The notes: a model not told the origin generated them from the letters alone. A stretch of DNA of 64,000 nucleotides from an uncultured Candidatus Saccharibacteria bacterium (GCA_964577595.1 CAZNZK010000004.1:27294-91293); one strand, 5' to 3'. Positions 19,185 to 41,825 are shown, counted from the first letter of the stretch. Translations and numbers: made by a program.

Positions 19185-20318
19185 ATGGCTGAAAATAAGG
19201 CTAAAACACCATTTGATTTACCCAAACTTCCACCTTTAATTGATTATAAGGAGCTGGTTGAACATATAAGCTCTGCTCATGCGGCGTTGGCTCGGTTAGA
19301 TGAAATGCTTAAACACGTTAGCAACCCAGCTCTTATAGAAAGGACGTTTCTTACTCGCGAAGCTGTTTTGAGCTCTCAAATTGAGGGTACACAAGCAACT
19401 CTTGAAGAGGTTATGAAAAAAGAAGCGGAAGATGGAAAAAAGATTTCTGAAACGACGGAAAAAGCTCGCGATATTCAAGAAATCATTAATTATCGTGACG
19501 CTTTACGCGAAGGGGTGGAAATTATAAATCAAGGAGAATTTCTCGCGGAAAACAATGTTAAAAAACTCCACAGAATTCTTCTTGAATCGGTGCGTGGAAA
19601 AACCAGAGCGCCAGGTGAATTTAGACGAGAGCAAGTTTATATTGCACCGCCAGGAACTCCCATGTCGGAAGCCGGGTATATTCCTCCAGTACCACAAGAG
19701 GTTCCGGAGCTGTATGGAAATTTTGATAAATATCTCAATACTGCAACATCTGAAAGGGACGTGCTCGTGCAAATCGCAATTTCCCACTATCAATTTGAGG
19801 CAATTCACCCATTTAAAGATGGTAATGGCCGGATGGGGCGTCTGTTGATACCTTTGTTTTTGTATCAAAGGAAAATTATCGCTCGACCACTTATGTATAT
19901 TAGTCAATATTTTGAAGAACACCGACGGGATTATTACGACTTACTTGCGGATGTTAGCTATAAGGATGCTTGGATACCATGGCTACGTTTTTTTCTGAAC
20001 GGTTTAAAAGAACAAGCTCTGGATGCATGCCAATTGGCAGGTAAAATTATCACGCTCCGTGATGAGTATCAAAAACATCTCGCTGAATTTAATTCGACAT
20101 ATGCCTTTAATTTACTGGATGCTATCTTCGCCAGGCCAATTTTTACGGTTGTCAAAATTCAAGAAAGATCGGGAATCAAGGTTTACCAGACTCTATTAAA
20201 TTTGGTTGAAAAGTTTGTTGACGCGGGGATTTTGCAAGATTCCACTCCTGATAAAAAAAGAAATAAAATATATGAGTTCAAGCCCCTCCTAAAACTGTTG
20301 GAGAATAAAAAGGAGTAA
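19185..20318 (+). CDS. Fic family protein (AMPylase/Fido domain)
   Basis: Fic motif HPFKDGNGRMGRLLIPLFL, 377 aa. Confidence 0.85.
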   Translation: MAENKAKTPFDLPKLPPLIDYKELVEHISSAHAALARLDEMLKHVSNPALIERTFLTREAVLSSQIEGTQATLEEVMKKEAEDGKKISETTEKARDIQEIINYRDALREGVEIINQGEFLAENNVKKLHRILLESVRGKTRAPGEFRREQVYIAPPGTPMSEAGYIPPVPQEVPELYGNFDKYLNTATSERDVLVQIAISHYQFEAIHPFKDGNGRMGRLLIPLFLYQRKIIARPLMYISQYFEEHRRDYYDLLADVSYKDAWIPWLRFFLNGLKEQALDACQLAGKIITLRDEYQKHLAEFNSTYAFNLLDAIFARPIFTVVKIQERSGIKVYQTLLNLVEKFVDAGILQDSTPDKKRNKIYEFKPLLKLLENKKE

Positions 20319-22050: not shown

Positions 22051-22091
22051 GTTCTAATGCCGTCCCATACGGCCCGCAGTGAAGCACCACT
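22051..22091. repeat. Right composite repeat: the att-like arm (22051..22079) fused to a 21-bp copy of the tRNA-Trp 3' flank (22071..22091)
   Basis: gttctaatgccgtcccatacggcccgcag + tgaagcaccact. Confidence 0.8.
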
Positions 22092-22111
22092 CGTGTAGTG
22101 TGCAAAAGGAT

Positions 22112-23056
22112 ATGAAAAAGGTATTCATTAGCAATTCTCCAATTCAGGGTAGGGGAGTATTTGCCGCAGAAAATCTAAAAAAGAATGAAAAAGTTTTCAT
22201 GGTGAAAGGGCCTGTAATTATCTATCCAACACTGCCAGACGGAAGAATTGGTTCAGATTGGATGCACGTAGGACACAATGCGTGGAAAATCGCATACCAT
22301 GGTAGTCCTTGGGTTTTTCTCAACCACTCTTGCCGGCCCAATGCTTTTTTAAAAAATAAGTCTGACGTCGTGGCCATAAGGCCGATTAAAAAAGGTACAG
22401 AAATAACGCTGGATTATTCTTTCACTGAAGGGGGTCAAAATTGGAAAATGAAATGTCGGTGTGGTCTGCCCGAATGCAGAAAACAGATTCGAAGTATACA
22501 ATCTTTGCCGGAAACATTATTTAGGAAATACCAAGAGTATGTGCCCTCTTTTTTACAAAAAGAGTATTTAAAGCAGAAGGTATATGTTGGAAAAATAAAA
22601 TCAGGCCGTACTGTTTTTGTAAAGCGGCTAATAAAGAAAGGGGAAATATTATTTACCGTAGAAGGGCCACGCATCAGATTCCGAAAACCTCCAAAAGATA
22701 GCATTGGTTTTAAGTGGCTTGGTATTAGTAAAAACGAATGGTGTATTCCATTCAGAACCAATCCTTGGTTTTATGTGAGGCATTCGTGTGATCCGAATGT
22801 TGGTCTAGTCGATAAAAATAATGTGGTAGCACTAAAAATTATTGAGGCAAATGAAGAGATAGTCGTCGATGATTCAATTACAGAAGCTCAGGCAACATGG
22901 AAGGTGAAGTGTCATTGTGGCTCTAAAAATTGCCGCGGTATTATTAGGTCCATTCAGTTTTTGCCTAAAAAACAGTTTAAAAAATATTTACCCTACATCC
23001 CCGACTATTTTCAGAAAATATACAAACTCTATGCCGCACAAGATGGGTCGGTTTAG
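22112..23056 (+). CDS. Protein with two tandem SET domains (putative protein-lysine methyltransferase)
   Basis: Two SET cores (…VFLNHSCRPNAF…TEITLDYSF… and …FYVRHSCDPNVGL…EEIVVDDSI…), each followed by a post-SET Cys cluster (CRCGLPECRKQIRS and CHCGSKNCRGIIRS). Confidence 0.7.
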   Translation: MKKVFISNSPIQGRGVFAAENLKKNEKVFMVKGPVIIYPTLPDGRIGSDWMHVGHNAWKIAYHGSPWVFLNHSCRPNAFLKNKSDVVAIRPIKKGTEITLDYSFTEGGQNWKMKCRCGLPECRKQIRSIQSLPETLFRKYQEYVPSFLQKEYLKQKVYVGKIKSGRTVFVKRLIKKGEILFTVEGPRIRFRKPPKDSIGFKWLGISKNEWCIPFRTNPWFYVRHSCDPNVGLVDKNNVVALKIIEANEEIVVDDSITEAQATWKVKCHCGSKNCRGIIRSIQFLPKKQFKKYLPYIPDYFQKIYKLYAAQDGSV

Positions 23057-25221: not shown

Positions 25222-26364
25222 ATGACTAGAAAGATTGTCATTGCCGACCCGCAGGAGGACGCTCTCGTCGCCGAGCTAGAAAAAAGAACCGATGTTAAGG
25301 CCGAGCGCGTAAAACGGCTTTTACGCTTGCCCGACTTAACGAAAAAAGCCAACTCGCCCGTAAAAATTCTTTTTGATCAAATAATTTCTTTGCCTCGCTT
25401 TAAAAATTTTGACCTCGTTGATTTTCCGCGGATAGTGACGGTGGAGCAAGATTTTGACCTCCTTAATACACCCGCCAACCATCCAAGCAGAAAAGAAACC
25501 GACACCTATTATGTGGACGAAAACCATGTACTCAGAACGCAAATGACCGTTATGTGGTCGTTTTATCTGAAAGACAAAGACATTTTGAAAAAACTGGAAA
25601 CCGAGGGCGAAATCGGGGCGCTTTCAACCGGTATCGTTTTTCGCAAGGACGAAATTGACCGCCACCACTACCCGGCGTTTCACCAAATTGACGGTCTCTA
25701 CGTGTGTAAGCGGTCAAAAAAAGTTATCACCCAGAAAGATCTGGAGGAGGTGCAGGTTGATATGGCCAAAAGCATTTTCGGCGACGCCATAGAATACAAA
25801 TTTCTGGTGGATACATTTCCGTTTACCGACCCTTCCGTGGAAATGGACATGAAATTCCGTGGCGAGTGGATGGAGGTCAACGGCGCTGGCTTGGTGCATC
25901 CGCAGGTGCTGAAAAATTTTGGCTTGGATCCGGAAATCTACAATGGCTGGGCTTTCGGTTTCGGCGACCGTTTGGCAATGGTAAAAATGGGCATTCCTGA
26001 CATTCGTATTTTATGGTCGGAGGATTCGCGTATCACCTCGCAATTCAAAGACATTAACAGCACGTTTAAAGAAATCAGCAAATATCCGGCCGTGGTGCGC
26101 GACATTTCTTTCGTTGTGGACAAAAGCGTCACGCTTAATAATTATTACGAAATTATCAGAGATGAGGCCGAAAATCTCATTGAAGAAGTGAAGCTTATAG
26201 ATACGTTTGAAAATGAGAAAAAATTCGGTCCCGGCAAAATTTCCCATACCTTCAGAATCACCTATCGGTCATTAGACAGAACGCTCACTAATGACGAAAT
26301 AAACCGCATCCACGATGCGATCGTGAAAAAAACCGAGAAAGAGTTGCAGGCGGTGGTGCGGTAA
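25222..26364 (+). CDS. pheS: Phenylalanine--tRNA ligase alpha subunit
   Basis: …FPFTDPSVEMDMKFRGEWMEVNGAGLVHPQVLKNFGLDPEIYNGWAFGFGDRLAMVKMGIPDIR… class II core. No pheT follows. Confidence 0.85.
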   Translation: MTRKIVIADPQEDALVAELEKRTDVKAERVKRLLRLPDLTKKANSPVKILFDQIISLPRFKNFDLVDFPRIVTVEQDFDLLNTPANHPSRKETDTYYVDENHVLRTQMTVMWSFYLKDKDILKKLETEGEIGALSTGIVFRKDEIDRHHYPAFHQIDGLYVCKRSKKVITQKDLEEVQVDMAKSIFGDAIEYKFLVDTFPFTDPSVEMDMKFRGEWMEVNGAGLVHPQVLKNFGLDPEIYNGWAFGFGDRLAMVKMGIPDIRILWSEDSRITSQFKDINSTFKEISKYPAVVRDISFVVDKSVTLNNYYEIIRDEAENLIEEVKLIDTFENEKKFGPGKISHTFRITYRSLDRTLTNDEINRIHDAIVKKTEKELQAVVR

Positions 26365-28697: not shown

Positions 28698-30833
28698 ATG
28701 GCTGAAACTAAGGATAAAACAACAAAAAAACCAGCTTCGCATTACAGCGCCGAAGACATCCAGGTTTTGGAGGGGTTAGAGCCCGTGCGCAAGCGCCCGG
28801 GCATGTATATTGGCACCACTGGGCCGGACGGCTTCCATCACCTCGTTACGGAAATTTTTGACAACTCGCGCGATGAAGCGATGGGTGGCTTTGCTAATGA
28901 TATTGAAATTGTGCTGTTGCCGGCGGCCGCTGGCGGCCTGGAGCGCGTGCGCGTGGTAGACAACGGCCGTGGTATTCCAGTGGACATGCATAAGCAAACC
29001 AAAGTGTCCGCTTTGGAAACTATTATGACCACTTTGCATGCCGGTGGAAAATTCGGCGGCGAGGGCTACAAAGTTTCCGGCGGTTTGCACGGCGTGGGCG
29101 CTTCCGTCGTGAACGCTCTTTCCGATTGGTGTCAGGTTATCGTTCATAAAAGCGATGGCACGGTGAAGAATGGTATTTACATTCAGGAATATAAGCGCGG
29201 CAAAGCGGCCTTTAAGGTAAAAAATGTTGGTTCTACAAAAAATAACGGCACCATTGTTTCTTTTGCTCCTGATTCCCAAATTTTCGGCGATCAAAAATTT
29301 GATTTCCAGCGCATCGTCAATCATATGCGCCAGCAGGCCTACTTGGTGAAGGGTTTACGTATTAGCGTTATTGACGCACGCGCCGTTACTGATACAAAAA
29401 CGCTTGCCAAGCTTGAAGAGGTTTTTTACGCTCGGGAACTTTTTGGCCAGCCTGGCTTGGATGCGCCGTCACACACCTTCTATTTTGAAGGTGGTTTGCG
29501 TTCACTGGTAAAATTCCAAAATCAGGTTTTGAAGCCGGTCCACAAAAACATTTTTTATGTTGAGAAAAAGACCAATGAGTATGAGTCGGCTGAAATCGCC
29601 TTGCAATATGTAGACGACATCGCCAGTCGCGTTTTGCCATTTGCGAACAATATCTACAACAGCGAAGGTGGCACACACGTCACTGGTTTTAAAACTGCCC
29701 TCACTCGCACCCTCAATGCCTATGGCCGCAAAAACAATCTCATTAAGGAATCCGAAGACAGCTTCACCGGTGAAGATGTTTTGGAAGGGTTGACCGCCGT
29801 CATTTCCGTTAAAATCCGCGAAATTCAGTTTGAAGGCCAAACAAAGGCCAAGCTCGGCACCGTGGAAGCACGCGGTATCGTGGAAAGTGTTTTCGGCGAA
29901 GCCTTCTCAGCCTTTTTGGAAGAAAACCCCGATGACGCCCGGGCTATTATCGGCAAGGTAGTGCTGGCTCTGAAGGCCCGCAAAGCCGCCAAGGCCGCCA
30001 AGGATTCCGTTCTGCGCAAGGGCGCTTTAGAGGGTTTTGCTTTGCCGGGCAAGCTTGCCGACTGCCAAAGTAAAGATGCATCAGAAAGCGAGCTCTTTAT
30101 TGTAGAAGGCGATTCAGCCGGTGGCACCGCCAAGCAGGGCCGCGATAGGCGCACCCAAGCCGTCCTGCCACTTCGCGGTAAAATCCTCAACGTGGAGCGT
30201 GCTCGCTTGGATAAGATGCTGGAATCGCAGGAAATCAAAAACCTGGTCATCGCCCTCGGCACGGCTATTGGCGACACTTTTGACGTCACCAAGCTCCGTT
30301 ACCACAAAATCATTATTGCTACCGATGCCGACGTTGACGGCGCCCACATTCGCACACTTTTGCTGACCCTTTTCTATCGTCATTTCCGCCCGCTCGTTGA
30401 TGGTGGCTTCATTTACATCGCCCAGCCACCGCTTTTCAAAATCAAAAAAGGCAAGGAAATTTTCTACGCCTATTCCGATGAAGAGCGAAATAAAATAATC
30501 GGTAAAGCCGACGTTGCCGAAATTGAGGAAGTAGACAGTGCAAACCCGGGCGAAGCTTCCGCCACGGAAGAAGTCGCTGGCGACGAAAAAGAGGGCGAAG
30601 CCACCAAGAAAGTCGCCAAAATTTCCATCCAGCGCTACAAGGGTTTGGGCGAAATGAATGCCGAAGAGCTCCAGGAAACCACCATGGACATCACTAAGCG
30701 CATTCTTAAAAAAGTCACCGTTGACGACGTTCAGGACGCCGACAAAATTTTTGATATCCTGATGGGTACCGATGTGCCTTCCCGCAAATCGTTCATCCAG
30801 TCCAATGCCAAAAAAGCCACTCTTGATATTTAA
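28698..30833 (+). CDS. gyrB: DNA gyrase subunit B (type IIA topoisomerase B subunit)
   Basis: GHKL ATPase N-terminus (…HLVTEIFDNSRDEAMGG…), TOPRIM (…LFIVEGDSAGG…), and a C-terminal tail. 711 aa. Confidence 0.85.
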   Translation: MAETKDKTTKKPASHYSAEDIQVLEGLEPVRKRPGMYIGTTGPDGFHHLVTEIFDNSRDEAMGGFANDIEIVLLPAAAGGLERVRVVDNGRGIPVDMHKQTKVSALETIMTTLHAGGKFGGEGYKVSGGLHGVGASVVNALSDWCQVIVHKSDGTVKNGIYIQEYKRGKAAFKVKNVGSTKNNGTIVSFAPDSQIFGDQKFDFQRIVNHMRQQAYLVKGLRISVIDARAVTDTKTLAKLEEVFYARELFGQPGLDAPSHTFYFEGGLRSLVKFQNQVLKPVHKNIFYVEKKTNEYESAEIALQYVDDIASRVLPFANNIYNSEGGTHVTGFKTALTRTLNAYGRKNNLIKESEDSFTGEDVLEGLTAVISVKIREIQFEGQTKAKLGTVEARGIVESVFGEAFSAFLEENPDDARAIIGKVVLALKARKAAKAAKDSVLRKGALEGFALPGKLADCQSKDASESELFIVEGDSAGGTAKQGRDRRTQAVLPLRGKILNVERARLDKMLESQEIKNLVIALGTAIGDTFDVTKLRYHKIIIATDADVDGAHIRTLLLTLFYRHFRPLVDGGFIYIAQPPLFKIKKGKEIFYAYSDEERNKIIGKADVAEIEEVDSANPGEASATEEVAGDEKEGEATKKVAKISIQRYKGLGEMNAEELQETTMDITKRILKKVTVDDVQDADKIFDILMGTDVPSRKSFIQSNAKKATLDI

Positions 30834-31470
30834 ATTCCTCGGCATTGCCGCCGCAGTATTCATTGTTACTTTCATTGTGTTTTACCTGGTTGGTGCGGTT
30901 CCAGCCGAATTTCAATTTTTTACGGAAACGCCAACCTATCAGCCGCCGACTATCTCGATAACAGCTACCAGCACTAACGGCAAGCCGGTCACTCAGTCCA
31001 GTCAGCCGGTTGTTGTAAATGGCTTTTTCGCCGGCGCAAATTTCCCAGAACGCATCATTATTCCTTCTATTAGCGTTAATAGCGTGGTGCTCAACCCGCA
31101 AACCACCGACGTGGTCGCGCTCGATGACTTGCTTTTGAAAGGCGCGGTGCGTTACCCAACTTCCGGCCAGCTAGGGCAGGGAACCGTTTTCATTTTCGGC
31201 CATAACACCGGCTTGGCCGCTTTTAATCCGGCCTATAAAACTTTTAACGGCTTGCGTACTATAAAAAATGGCGCGCAAATAGAAGTTGATTCCGCCAGCG
31301 CCCGCTACTTTTACACCGTCACTTCACTTGAATTGGTAGACAGCGACACGGCATATGTGAACGTTTCCGCTACCGATAACGAGCTAGTTATTGCCACCTG
31401 CAATGTTTTCGGCGCCAAGGAACAGCGCTATGTAGTGCATGCGGCTCCGGCGGGGCAAAGCGCTCTGTAA
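30805..31470 (+). CDS. Sortase-family transpeptidase
   Basis: N-terminal TM anchor, His in IFGHNTGLAAF, Cys in LVIATC, Arg in RYVV. Its start overlaps the gyrB end. Confidence 0.7.
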   Translation: MPKKPLLIFKFLGIAAAVFIVTFIVFYLVGAVPAEFQFFTETPTYQPPTISITATSTNGKPVTQSSQPVVVNGFFAGANFPERIIIPSISVNSVVLNPQTTDVVALDDLLLKGAVRYPTSGQLGQGTVFIFGHNTGLAAFNPAYKTFNGLRTIKNGAQIEVDSASARYFYTVTSLELVDSDTAYVNVSATDNELVIATCNVFGAKEQRYVVHAAPAGQSAL

Positions 31471-31536
31471 AGAAGCGCTTGACAGCGTACTTATATATGT
31501 TATAATGGTTAGGTTCAGGTTAAATGAACAAACATT

Positions 31537-32565
31537 ATGACCAAAAAACTCATATTTACAGCCATTATTTGTGCCATCGTTGTTGGCGCTTTCAGCGTGT
31601 CTGTTTCTAACGCCTCAGCCTGTAGCTCAGGTTGCTATGGTTACGGAAACCATTATACGTACGATTACGATCACACTTCTAATTGTAGCTGTACTCATCC
31701 AACACCGGCTCCAACGCCTGCGCCTACTCCAGTGCCCCCGCCGGTAGTTACTCCGCCGGTCTACAATCCTCCGGTATATAACCCGCCCGTTTACAATCCT
31801 CCTGTCTATAACCCACCTGTATACAATCCACCAGTGTATAACCCTCCGGTCTACAATCCTCCGGTTGTTTACCAAGCTCCGATTGTGTATCAGGCCCCGA
31901 TTGTCTACCAAGCTCCAGTTATCCAAACGTATGCTCCGCTTAGCGTAACATGTCAGGCTAATCCCGTTCACGCTACTGTTGGTAGCACGATTACGTGGAC
32001 GGCCATCATCTCTGGTGGTAATGATTCCTACAATGGTTACAATTCCTACGGTTATAACACCTATAACCCGTACAATAACGGTAGCTACTACAATGATTCG
32101 TACAACGGTTCCTATAACGGCGGTTACTCCCTCACCTGGACCGGTACTGATGGTTTGGGTAACAATGGCAGTACGATCATTTCCAAGACCTATGTGACTC
32201 CGGGCCAGAAAGTGGCCACTGTCACGGTTTACGAAAATGGTCAGAATGTGACTGCTAGCTGTGCCAGCTATGTTGGTGCGCCTATCGTCACTCCGTATGG
32301 TGGTTCTACACAGCGTGTCTACTTGAATCAGGTTCCGTATACCGGTGCCGGTAGTACTACGAAGGTTGTTCTCTTTCTTGCCATTATGGCCGCTTGGAGC
32401 GCCTTGGTTGCTTACGTCATTATGAAGCGCCGCGCCTCTGCCACTTCCACGACTGCCCGTTTGGCCGCCGCCGGTATCACTACGACAGCCGCTCCCACTG
32501 CAGAAACTTCCAGCAACTTCTTGACCAACTACGTCGCCAAGCTTCGTAATCAGGCCAATCAGTAA
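31537..32565 (+). CDS. Secreted surface protein with Pro-rich tandem repeats and a C-terminal sorting-signal-like segment (VPYTG + TM + KRR)
   Basis: Signal peptide; (PPVYN)x7; (YQAPIV)x3; a Tyr/Asn/Gly-rich block; then LNQVPYTGAGSTTK-VVLFLAIMAAWSALVAYVIM-KRR and a further ~40-aa tail. Confidence 0.65.
   Translation: MTKKLIFTAIICAIVVGAFSVSVSNASACSSGCYGYGNHYTYDYDHTSNCSCTHPTPAPTPAPTPVPPPVVTPPVYNPPVYNPPVYNPPVYNPPVYNPPVYNPPVYNPPVVYQAPIVYQAPIVYQAPVIQTYAPLSVTCQANPVHATVGSTITWTAIISGGNDSYNGYNSYGYNTYNPYNNGSYYNDSYNGSYNGGYSLTWTGTDGLGNNGSTIISKTYVTPGQKVATVTVYENGQNVTASCASYVGAPIVTPYGGSTQRVYLNQVPYTGAGSTTKVVLFLAIMAAWSALVAYVIMKRRASATSTTARLAAAGITTTAAPTAETSSNFLTNYVAKLRNQANQ
31754..31920 (+). repeat. Coding tandem repeats: seven 15-nt units (PPVYN) then three 18-nt units (YQAPIV)
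   Basis: ccnccngtntayaay units read directly from the sequence. Confidence 0.8.
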
Positions 32566-32588
32566 AACTAAATTATTATAAAACAAAA

Positions 32589-32613
32589 TCCGCCCTCACA
32601 AGGGGTGGATTTT
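32589..32613. terminator. Bidirectional intrinsic terminator between the surface-protein gene and thrS
   Basis: ATCCGCCC-TCACAA-GGGGTGGAT with T-runs on both strands. Confidence 0.55.
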
Positions 32614-32614
32614 G

Positions 32615-34599: not shown

Positions 34600-34992
34600 A
34601 TGCCTACACTACAGGATGTTGTAAACAAAATAGACGGTCTTCCTACGAAGCAAGATGTTATAAGTATAATAGACAGTAAGATAGGGGGTCTTGCAACCAA
34701 GCAAGATGTCATGAATAAAATAGATGGTCTCGCAACCAAGCAAGATGTTACGAATAAGAGGCTAGATGGTCTCGCGGCAAAGCAGGATGCTATGAGTAAG
34801 CAGATTAGCGATTTTGTGGCTATAACCGAACAGCGGTTTAATGATGTGGATAACCGTCTTGATGTGATTGAAACAATTTCGGCTCAAATGCAGGAGGTGT
34901 TACAAGAAAAGTTTGTCAAAATAGATACCCTTACCACTTCAATCGTAAAACACGAAAAGCGGATTTTGAAACTGGAAACAAAGTGTGCCTAA
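34600..34992 (+). CDS. Hypothetical coiled-coil protein with four KIDGL(A/P)TKQDV repeats
   Basis: 130 aa with ~33-nt coding repeats. Confidence 0.45.
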   Translation: MPTLQDVVNKIDGLPTKQDVISIIDSKIGGLATKQDVMNKIDGLATKQDVTNKRLDGLAAKQDAMSKQISDFVAITEQRFNDVDNRLDVIETISAQMQEVLQEKFVKIDTLTTSIVKHEKRILKLETKCA

Positions 34993-40892: not shown

Positions 40893-41825
40893 ATGGCCAA
40901 CCGGCACCTTTCACGTTCGTTAGTTCTACAATCTCTCTACGAGTGGGATTTCAACCCCGATGGAAAAAAGCCAGGAAAGAATGAAGGCCGGGCCGATATT
41001 GCTCCTATAATTGCCCGCAATCAGAAAGAATTTGGCGAAGGTCAAACCGATGAGCATTTTGCTGAAAACTTGGCTCGGGGTGTTTTGGCTAAGCAAAGTG
41101 AGCTTGATACTATTATTGCCAAGGCCGCTCCGGATTGGCCGCTGGATAAAATCTCGGTTATGGACCGCAATATTCTGCGTATCGGTCTTTACGAATTGCT
41201 TTTTTCCGATAGGGCAGAGGTGCCAGCCAAAGTGGCCATTAATGAGGCCATAGAGCTGGCAAAAGGCTATGGAGGCGACACTTCCGGTCGGTTTATAAAC
41301 GGCGTTTTGGGTGCGGTGTATAAAGAAATCGGCGAGCCAGGCAAGGATGAAATCTCTAAGAAAGTCGGAAAGGGTGTGCCGGGAGCACCCAAAAAAGAAA
41401 TTCCCATTCAACACTTGGGTGGCGCTGTGGTTTACGCTCGTGAGGGTGATGAGGTGTACTTGGCTTTGGTGCACGATGTCTTTGGTCACTGGACGTTAAC
41501 AAAAGGCGGCATTGAAGCCGAAGAAAAAGTGGAGCAGGGCACCTTGCGAGGTGTCACAGAAGAGCTCGGCCTCAAAAAACTCACCATTAAAGAGAAATTG
41601 GACGAAAATACCTACGTTGCCTACAGCCCGGAGAGTGGCAAGAAGAAAAAGCACGTTACCTATTTCCTGGTTGAGTCGCCATTTGCGGAACTAAAGCTTG
41701 AAGAAAAGGGTGGCTTGGATGACGCGAAGTGGTTTAAGATGAAAGATATTCTGGAGTTGAATTTTTATAACGATATTTTGCCGATAGTTACCAAGGCGAT
41801 TAATTTGATTTTAGCCCAAAAATAG
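40893..41825 (+). CDS. nusB: NusB antitermination factor fused to a C-terminal Nudix hydrolase domain
   Basis: NusB core (RSLVLQSLYEWDF…DRNILRIGLYELLF…AINEAIELAKGYGG) then a Nudix box GGIEAEEKVEQGTLRGVTEELGL (GX5EX7R[G]VxEExGL) in a single 310-aa ORF. Confidence 0.75.
   Translation: MANRHLSRSLVLQSLYEWDFNPDGKKPGKNEGRADIAPIIARNQKEFGEGQTDEHFAENLARGVLAKQSELDTIIAKAAPDWPLDKISVMDRNILRIGLYELLFSDRAEVPAKVAINEAIELAKGYGGDTSGRFINGVLGAVYKEIGEPGKDEISKKVGKGVPGAPKKEIPIQHLGGAVVYAREGDEVYLALVHDVFGHWTLTKGGIEAEEKVEQGTLRGVTEELGLKKLTIKEKLDENTYVAYSPESGKKKKHVTYFLVESPFAELKLEEKGGLDDAKWFKMKDILELNFYNDILPIVTKAINLILAQK

Follow-up and report, generated by a model that had tools for sequence, protein, structure and literature searches.

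The sortase gene and its neighbour

The stretch of DNA considered here (hereafter, the window) comprises 64,000 nucleotides from an uncultured Candidatus Saccharibacteria bacterium (GCA_964577595.1, CAZNZK010000004.1:27294-91293). In it, a sortase gene (30805..31470; 221 amino acids, aa) is followed by the gene of a predicted secreted, C-terminally anchored surface protein bearing the motif VPYTG (31537..32565; 342 aa); these genes, their parts, and the promoter and hairpin described in this section lie on the plus strand. A preliminary description of this DNA had proposed the two open reading frames (ORFs) as a dedicated sortase-substrate pair, and both were found where it had placed them. 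They are part of a VYLNQ-VPYTG sorting system which is real, widely conserved in the Patescibacteria (candidate phyla radiation, CPR) and currently lacks annotation.

The sortase ORF has an alternative upstream ATG at 30772; public gene calls start at 30805, and this is also the start from which a protein identical to the window sortase (P0018) is called in public assemblies. The 3' end of gyrB (28698..30833) overlaps the start of the gene by 29 nt, and the sortase is therefore probably co-transcribed with gyrB. The product matches the Pfam sortase family PF04203 with 61.5 bits (cut-off 26.6), covering positions 1-124 of the 125 in the profile. The catalytic triad that had been read from the sequence is in place, in the motifs FGHNT (aa 131), LVIATC (aa 194) and RYVV (aa 208); the residues concerned, His133 (codon 31201-31203), Cys199 (31399-31401) and Arg208 (31426-31428), are conserved in at least 99% of 88 database homologs, which also keep the family signatures LD..LLKGAVRYP.S..LG.G...FGH and L...TC..F..K..R. 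In the AlphaFold2 (AF2) model, built from a 53-sequence alignment (mean predicted local distance difference test score, pLDDT, 81.8), an N-terminal membrane-anchor helix (aa 5-29, 30817..30891; pLDDT ~95) is connected by a disordered linker (aa 54-76) to the catalytic beta-barrel (aa 77-221, 31033..31467), the latter being supported by homolog alignment and Foldseek as well. Residues F11, L26 and P33 of the anchor region are kept in at least 93% of the homologs. No lid motif of the DP[FWY] type was seen on reading the sortase sequence by eye, residues 54-76 being the disordered linker.

A Foldseek comparison of the model with the PDB gave 132 matches at E<=0.001, and the best 50 of the 132 are all sortases. 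The top match is Listeria SrtA (5hu4; E 1e-10, target template modelling score, TM-score, 0.80); the Listeria and Bacillus anthracis SrtA structures are the best ones (target TM-scores 0.73-0.80), followed by enzymes of classes C, E and D, and a PDB sequence search agrees weakly with the SrtA-like fold (2kw8, E 1e-4). Assignment to a class by hidden Markov models (HMMs), as suggested in the preliminary description, fails for every class: among the curated NCBIfam models for sortases A-F and GN, none has its cut-off reached by the window enzyme. The best class score is that of a class D model (33.9 against 165), the others being SrtD (32.6 against 140), GN (29.1 against 158), class E (22.9 against 160) and class C (22.7 against 160); the generic TIGR01076 gives 31.1 against 39.35, and the class A, B and F models have no match at E<=1. 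The window enzyme is accordingly a genuine sortase from a clade outside the A-F scheme, in its form closest to the housekeeping enzymes. No second sortase was found in the window.

The 66-bp spacer between the two genes contains a consensus match to a sigma-70-type promoter with an extended -10 element, TTGACA-16 nt-TG-n-TATAAT (31479..31506), identical to the consensus at 12 of 12 positions; the -35 and the extended -10 are kept in the relatives L003 and L022, and the -10 in L005. Behind the substrate gene, between it and the convergent thrS, pattern matching detects a terminator-like hairpin with a 13-bp stem (32584..32614). Promoter and hairpin together suggest that the substrate is expressed at a high level and independently.

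The substrate begins with a signal peptide (aa 1-28, 31537..31620), recognized by its MTKK start, hydrophobic core and ASA/C junction, modelled by AF2 as a helix at residues 3-18 and kept in homologs. It is followed by a Cys/Tyr-rich N-terminal tip (aa 29-53, 31621..31695; Cys 29, 33, 50 and 52), the equivalent of which in substrate homologs is of low complexity and rich in Tyr, Gly, Asp and Cys, and by a Pro-rich repeat stalk (aa 54-131, 31696..31929) made up of PTPAPTPAP, seven copies of PPVYN (aa 73-107) and three of YQAP(IV/VI). The signal peptide and the sevenfold PPVYN repeat are as previously described, while the three YQAPIV copies are in fact two exact ones and a third reading YQAPVI. 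Tandem Repeats Finder resolves the region into 7.6 copies of a period of 15 at 31752-31865 and 3.2 copies of a period of 18 at 31859-31916; its match to Extensin_1 is below the cut-off (36 bits against 105), and AF2 leaves the stalk extended, with low pLDDT.

The only folded part of the ectodomain modelled with high confidence is a PKD/Ig-like beta-sandwich (aa 134-246, 31936..32274). The AF2 model of the substrate (14 sequences) has a mean pLDDT of 62.7, with values of about 90 for residues 136-246 outside a disordered Tyr/Asn/Gly-rich insert (aa 164-193, 32026-32115), the latter corresponding to the block of this composition noticed earlier. Foldseek matches the sandwich to the PKD domains of the collagenase ColG (target TM-scores 0.73-0.77, with modest E-values of 6e-4) and also to an archaeal S-layer PKD domain; the window substrate itself has no Pfam PKD match, and its homologs match PKD_4 (PF18911). 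The sandwich is bracketed by the conserved Cys139 and Cys242, and a conserved Cys pair likewise brackets each Ig-like domain in the substrate homologs, which fits a protein folded outside the cytoplasm.

The C-terminus reads RVYLNQ-VPYTG-AGSTTK-VVLFLAIMAAWSALVAYVIM-KRR and then continues for 43 residues, which confirms the reported order of motif, short spacer, 20-residue hydrophobic stretch and basic cluster. The extended sorting motif VYLNQ-VPYTG occupies aa 261-270 (32317..32346; VPYTG, aa 266-270), with predicted cleavage between Thr269 and Gly270. It belongs to no folded domain, lying in a linker (aa 251-272, pLDDT <50) that joins the Ig-like domain to the membrane helix. The stop-transfer helix (aa 277-296) and KRR (aa 297-299; together 32365..32433) were delimited by AF2 and by reading the sequence; in the model, a long helix (aa 274-311) starts just ahead of the hydrophobic stretch and extends beyond KRR. 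The predicted cytoplasmic tail (aa 300-342, 32434..32562) contains RLAAAG (aa 308-313) and, according to AF2, a terminal helix, NFLTNYVAKLRNQ (aa 328-340), which is kept in the close relatives P0001-P0003 and in the L005 protein. Among all six-frame ORFs of the window, this is the sole real one in which a PxTG-type motif precedes a hydrophobic stretch near the C-terminus, and it is also the window's only match to the signal profile described below.

The sorting signal and the gene pair in Patescibacteria

The signal found in the window is a family-wide element with the consensus [S/G]VYL[N/S][Q/D/E]-[V/I]PYTG, followed by a sequence-conserved helix and basic residues. An exhaustive search of 1.84 billion representative sequences with a profile of 51 columns around the motif retrieved 831 protein clusters at E<=1e-3 and 153 at E<=1e-10. 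When the 51-column alignment was run in a word-indexed search there were no matches, as so short a profile cannot yield significant E-values among 5.8 billion sequences. In the 148 best representatives the pentapeptide has V (86%), I (11%) or L (2%) at its first position, P in 100%, Y in 94%, and T and G in 100%, the preceding V-Y-L-[S/N]-[Q/D/E] is nearly fixed, and the helix positions F (97%), L (84%), W (75%), S (98%), A (77%) and Y (86%) are conserved, these percentages being partly circular in that the representatives were picked by the signal profile itself. Homologs of the whole protein share little besides PKD-like repeats, and nearly all of them end in [S/R]VYLNQVPYTG, a helix and basic residues; L263, V266, P267, Y268, T269 and G270 are invariant among those that carry the motif. 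The description of VPYTG as non-canonical is correct as far as Val replaces Leu, but VPxTG has a precedent in the pneumococcal VPDTG (PMC5640630). In the searchable full-text literature on VPYTG or PYTG, on sortases in CPR/Patescibacteria and on LPXTG in Parcubacteria, we found no account of the signal.

The passengers of the signal are diverse. In 83 representatives scanned, we found PKD (46), SprB (21), SpaA_2 (10) and Ig_3 (5) domains, and also DUF11, fn3 and dockerin. Such domains are typical of sortase-anchored adhesins. Many proteins other than the window substrate thus carry a similar C-terminal signal, including second copies within single related genomes; such paralogs have ectodomains that are only 29-32% identical and 44-residue signals that are 64-89% identical, and this combination of drifted ectodomains and kept signals is what would be expected from a shared processing enzyme.

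Several other candidates met in these searches were set aside. Three Desulfobacterales loci (L006, L029, L033) contain an internal EFYLNQVPYTG in proteins of 740-770 aa, with no membrane helix after it, at a site resembling a glycosyltransferase motif found in class A penicillin-binding proteins; they were treated as unrelated. P0111, in which the motif region is present 10 times, is a spurious ORF that stems from repeats. A separate observation concerns P0007, P0014 and P0015, which have the same PKD-like repeats and a different end, LSA.ALF.L.N(V/I)PWGW running into a membrane helix with basic residues; these organisms may thus possess, in the PWGW-type tail, another anchoring signal, distinct from the first.

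The roughly 40 residues beyond the basic cluster (43 by exact count) had been considered atypical; their presence is confirmed, whereas within the family they are ordinary, as about 80% of its members have long tails. Counted from the Gly, the tail has at most 40 residues in 29 of the 148 representatives, 41-60 in 38, 61-100 in 17, 101-200 in 52 and more than 200 in 12, so that 119 exceed 40 residues, the longest reaching about 390. The tails fall into classes with motifs of their own (RKNKILDFKxENM; SNRIxAFKxAN; NFLxxYVxxLR for the window type). A shared helical domain of about 65 residues, with the approximate pattern LE.EAR..N..IS.DA...I...A..IL..V..K.K....W.AL..E, is present on the predicted cytoplasmic side in 64 of 149 representatives (43%), P0159, P0135, P0009, P0141, P0116 and the downstream proteins of L039-L041 among them, and the longest tails add a C-terminal region of about 120 residues after it. 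Pfam and NCBIfam contain no family for any of the tails or for this domain. The domain is absent from the window protein, and an hhalign comparison of the window-type tail with it (probability 0.1) indicates no relationship. A motif [LM]A.AG just past the basic cluster is enriched in long tails (15 of 85, against 0.9 expected from shuffling). In these 15 tails it has the form [LM]A[FVA]AG and lies 3-22 residues beyond the basic cluster, the window copy being RLAAAG (32458..32475).

The pairing of the signal with a sortase extends well beyond the window. All six sortase homologs whose neighbourhood was read, among them enzymes with no more than 37-44% identity to the window sortase, are accompanied downstream by a protein with [V/I/L]PYTG and a helix, and the pairing is kept in relatives whose sortases are only 35-45% identical; the labels carried by homologs are Paceibacteria, Parcubacteria, Kaiserbacteria or Patescibacteria. 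A codon scan for YLNQVPYTG in species-representative genomes yielded 33 loci, 30 of them in assemblies labelled Patescibacteria and the remaining 3 those of Desulfobacterales, and a looser pattern added at least 119 loci from metagenomes. Among the matches listed in the two scans taken together, a sortase is located directly upstream of 63 of the 77 signal genes with assessable upstream DNA, in 61 cases on the same strand. At least 10 signal genes are situated elsewhere, without a sortase, and several genomes have two copies; such dispersed copies imply that one enzyme probably serves several substrates. The idea of a dedicated pair therefore stands as far as the conserved pairing is concerned, but not in the sense of exclusivity: the sortase looks like a general sorting enzyme, and its neighbour like the ancestral core substrate.

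In more distant relatives, a divergently oriented gene immediately upstream of the sortase, on the minus strand, codes for a surface protein with a CARDB domain and an N-terminal membrane anchor (L039, 7122-7895; L040, 7141-7908; L041, 6783-7853; L042, 3849-5069; L043, 5654-7099; L044, 5629-6984). The gene is absent from the window, where gyrB abuts the sortase.

Proposed processing of the substrate and its alternatives

The best reading of the locus is a Patescibacteria (CPR)-specific, housekeeping-type sortase next to its ancestral cognate substrate. We suppose, with a probability of roughly 70%, that the enzyme cleaves the substrate between Thr269 and Gly270 and that the ectodomain becomes covalently attached to the cell envelope. 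The substrate, expressed from its own strong promoter, would be exported by the Sec system via its N-terminal signal peptide and retained in the membrane through its C-terminal helix with KRR; the membrane-anchored sortase would recognize VYLNQ-VPYTG, exposed close to the outer face of the membrane on the flexible linker, Cys199 would attack the Thr269-Gly270 bond, and the ectodomain would be moved to an amine of the envelope. This acceptor is most likely a peptidoglycan precursor, peptidoglycan being a probable, though assumed, destination. In the wall-tethered product the PKD/Ig-like domain would be near the wall and the Pro-rich stalk of about 80 residues would hold the Cys/Tyr-rich tip outward, as befits a protein that is probably an adhesin, while the remnant from Gly270 to the end, that is, the helix and the cytoplasmic tail, would remain in the membrane.

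This scheme is closest to the class A/LPXTG systems of Firmicutes (Staphylococcus aureus, Listeria and B. anthracis). The window enzyme shares with SrtA the fold (5hu4 and 2kw8 being the closest structural matches), the His-Cys-Arg triad, the N-terminal anchor and the lack of a lid, the substrates are laid out alike (signal peptide, xPxTG, hydrophobic helix, basic residues), and in both cases one enzyme serves, in the window family apparently, several substrates. In contrast to class A, the window sortase, which is 16-27% identical to these enzymes and under every class cut-off, is encoded next to its core substrate; and the signal differs from LPXTG in having Val or Ile for Leu, Tyr fixed at X, five additional conserved upstream residues, VYL[N/S][Q/D/E], a helix conserved in sequence and long conserved cytoplasmic tails beyond the basic residues. 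Class E (LAxTG) of Actinobacteria is similar in that it is a housekeeping sortase particular to one lineage and recognizes an altered pentapeptide, and 5go6 and 9m4u are among the top folds; however, it has Ala at motif position 2, where the window has Pro, and its HMM score is that given above (22.9 against 160). PEP-CTERM/exosortase, PGF-CTERM/archaeosortase and GlyGly-CTERM/rhombosortase, likewise found by comparative genomics, offer a parallel of another kind: lineage-specific tripartite C-terminal signals on many unrelated passengers. Their enzymes are unrelated polytopic membrane proteins and their signals lie at the extreme C-terminus, whereas the window has a true sortase and the protein often continues beyond the signal.

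Several observations weigh against the proposed processing. The window tail scores 12.5 with the anchor model NF033073 (cut-off 48), the relative P0004 is below the cut-offs of TIGR01167 (13.3 against 15.9) and PF00746 (11.8 against 20), and the full-length window substrate has no match to the Pfam and NCBIfam anchor models. Two signal proteins (L009, 6352-7485, and L023, 2783-3589) have VYLNQVPYTG followed by 16-23 residues with no proper membrane helix, both ending in ...MAN; genetic code 25 (or 4) was ruled out as a cause of these short ends, the stop codon being reassigned by neither. The window contains no wall-synthesis genes. Almost all of the loci represent one conserved block, gyrB-sortase-substrate-thrS-dnaE, with thrS also downstream in 43 of the 47 pairs with assessable downstream DNA among the matches listed, so that the adjacency amounts to few independent events and possibly to inherited gene order; for this reason we down-weighted the 18 sortase adjacencies counted in 30 loci, nearly all of which are in the same syntenic block, as strong independent evidence. 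Finally, the conserved sequence of the helix, the long tails of about 80% of the family and the domain shared by 43% of it also fit permanent anchoring in the membrane.

These points could be accommodated by a permanent type I membrane protein in which VYLNQ-VPYTG is a juxtamembrane element that is never cleaved, the sortase being adjacent by inherited order and acting on other targets. Such a protein would explain why the anchor HMMs stay below their cut-offs and why the pair is mostly found in a block that also holds the unrelated gyrB, thrS and dnaE; the conservation of the F, L, WS and AY positions of the helix and of the tails, with the domain in 64 of 149 proteins, speaks for an independent function of the C-terminal part, and it is this conservation, foreign to classical LPXTG signals, that is the main reason to keep the explanation under consideration. 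Yet P, T and G are 100% invariant in the exact register of a sortase signal, the motif lies in a disordered linker six residues before the helix, with basic residues after it, and no other protein with xPxTG and a helix was found beside the sortase in any locus examined. Besides, the pair stays together where the order of the flanking genes is disrupted: it is intact in L044, though gyrB is absent there and thrS is 6 kb away, and 4 further loci among the matches listed keep it without thrS downstream. The adjacency of sortase and substrate is ancient and retained, not repeatedly evolved. A functional C-terminal part is, moreover, compatible with cleavage, judging from the Streptococcus gordonii C-peptide as described in PMC11326707. 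On balance, we regard permanent anchoring as unlikely.

Cleavage might also serve another end. Thr269 could be joined to a lysine of the next subunit, instead of or before attachment to the wall, giving a pilus or fibre. The pilins RrgA, RrgB and RrgC of Streptococcus pneumoniae use the sorting signals YPRTG, IPQTG and VPDTG, so that [V/I/Y]PxTG are proven sortase signals and non-Leu first positions are typical of pilins (PMC5640630). Like these class C systems, the window locus has VPxTG and an adjacent substrate gene with an Ig-like passenger, prealbumin-like domains of the SpaA type occur on some family members, and the consensus promoter points to a structural protein made in large amounts. 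Lysine occurs just twice in the mature ectodomain, as Lys217 and Lys225, each of them in a PKD strand; Lys225, the candidate acceptor, situated in the sequence G-x-K-x-A-T-V-T-V, is a residue nearly invariant in every PKD-like repeat. The recurrence of this lysine in every repeat of multi-domain homologs, however, suggests a structural role, and the window locus differs from class C in having neither the lid nor the lysine box of the pilin motif (no YPK(N)-type sequence was found in the substrate) nor a multi-pilin operon. As no DP[FWY] lid was seen, the class C score is 22.7 against 160, the closest structures are of class A and a second, housekeeping sortase is missing from the window, assembly into a pilus seems to us quite improbable. 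Still less credible, and in our view highly unlikely, is the resolution of the Thr-acyl intermediate by water, with shedding of the ectodomain, or by an amine of a lipid or the S-layer. To our knowledge, all characterised sortases of the SrtA-like fold transfer to peptide amines, and Patescibacteria generally encode peptidoglycan synthesis; in favour of this alternative are the lack of wall-synthesis genes in the window and the unclear structure of the CPR envelope stressed in the literature (PMC5220378).

Returning to the sortase-processed, envelope-attached substrate, the conserved helix and tail are also the basis for supposing a functional remnant. In S. gordonii, according to the account in PMC11326707 of the work of Hall et al. 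(2019), the C-peptide left after cleavage is sensed by the SGO_1180 two-component system. By analogy, a membrane fragment with its own function after cleavage could explain why the helix and tail are conserved here, with the difference that the S. gordonii tail appears in that account as a short generic LPXTG one, whereas the tails of the window family are long and have conserved motifs or the ~65-residue domain. Cleavage might then have a dual role throughout the Patescibacteria, the ectodomain being anchored outside and the remnant helix with the tail or the ~65-residue domain acting inside the cell; this is a tentative idea, and a doubtful one. The remnant may report surface display, position the sorting site or dock, helix to helix, with the sortase anchor.

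Surroundings of the pair and implications

The rest of the window consists of housekeeping genes (infB, clpB, gyrB, thrS, dnaE, topA, smc, rnr, parB and others) and includes 7 tRNAs. Some of its genes, all on the plus strand, deserve mention in their own right. A 380-aa phenylalanyl-tRNA synthetase (25222..26364) combines the class II core (tRNA-synt_2d) and a C-terminal FDX-ACB domain, which binds the anticodon, in one chain, which is the architecture of the mitochondrial enzyme. The single-chain gene is also present in the closest relatives L003, L022 and L027; in the more distant L005, L039-L041 and L043 its place is taken by two genes, pheS and pheT. Between thrS and dnaE there is an ORF of 130 aa (34600..34992) with imperfect repeats of about 11 residues (GL[A/P]TKQDV...) and a coiled-coil-like C-terminus, which has no Pfam match. 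A fusion of NusB with a NUDIX hydrolase (40893..41825; 310 aa) recurs in the relative L042. Genes of a SET-domain protein (22079..23056; 325 aa) and a Fic/DOC-family protein (19185..20318; 377 aa) are located in a stretch of lower GC content (0.40-0.43 at 18-24 kb, against about 0.49 elsewhere). As to the relatives, the annotation of dnaE in L044 (16759-17569) includes intein and LAGLIDADG domains, and the product has 1508 aa.

The Patescibacteria account for a very large part of the diversity of bacteria. Most of them have not been brought into culture, their presumed way of life is attachment to other cells, and little is understood of their envelope and surface proteins. A sortase is encoded in more than half of the CPR genomes (PMC6744442), and in the searchable literature we found no description of what CPR sortases recognize. 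The curated anchor models miss the VYLNQ-VPYTG signal; with a compact profile of it, annotators could pick out, across hundreds of genomes, the surface proteins that are displayed covalently and are candidates for attachment to a host, and the signal also offers a short peptide, RVYLNQVPYTGAGST, as a substrate for assays of the enzyme. A further point raised by the conserved helix and tail is the question of whether the "discarded" part of a sorting signal may have a function of its own; if the dual role supposed above were true, the precursor would be bipartite, a surface protein and an intracellular module split by the sortase.

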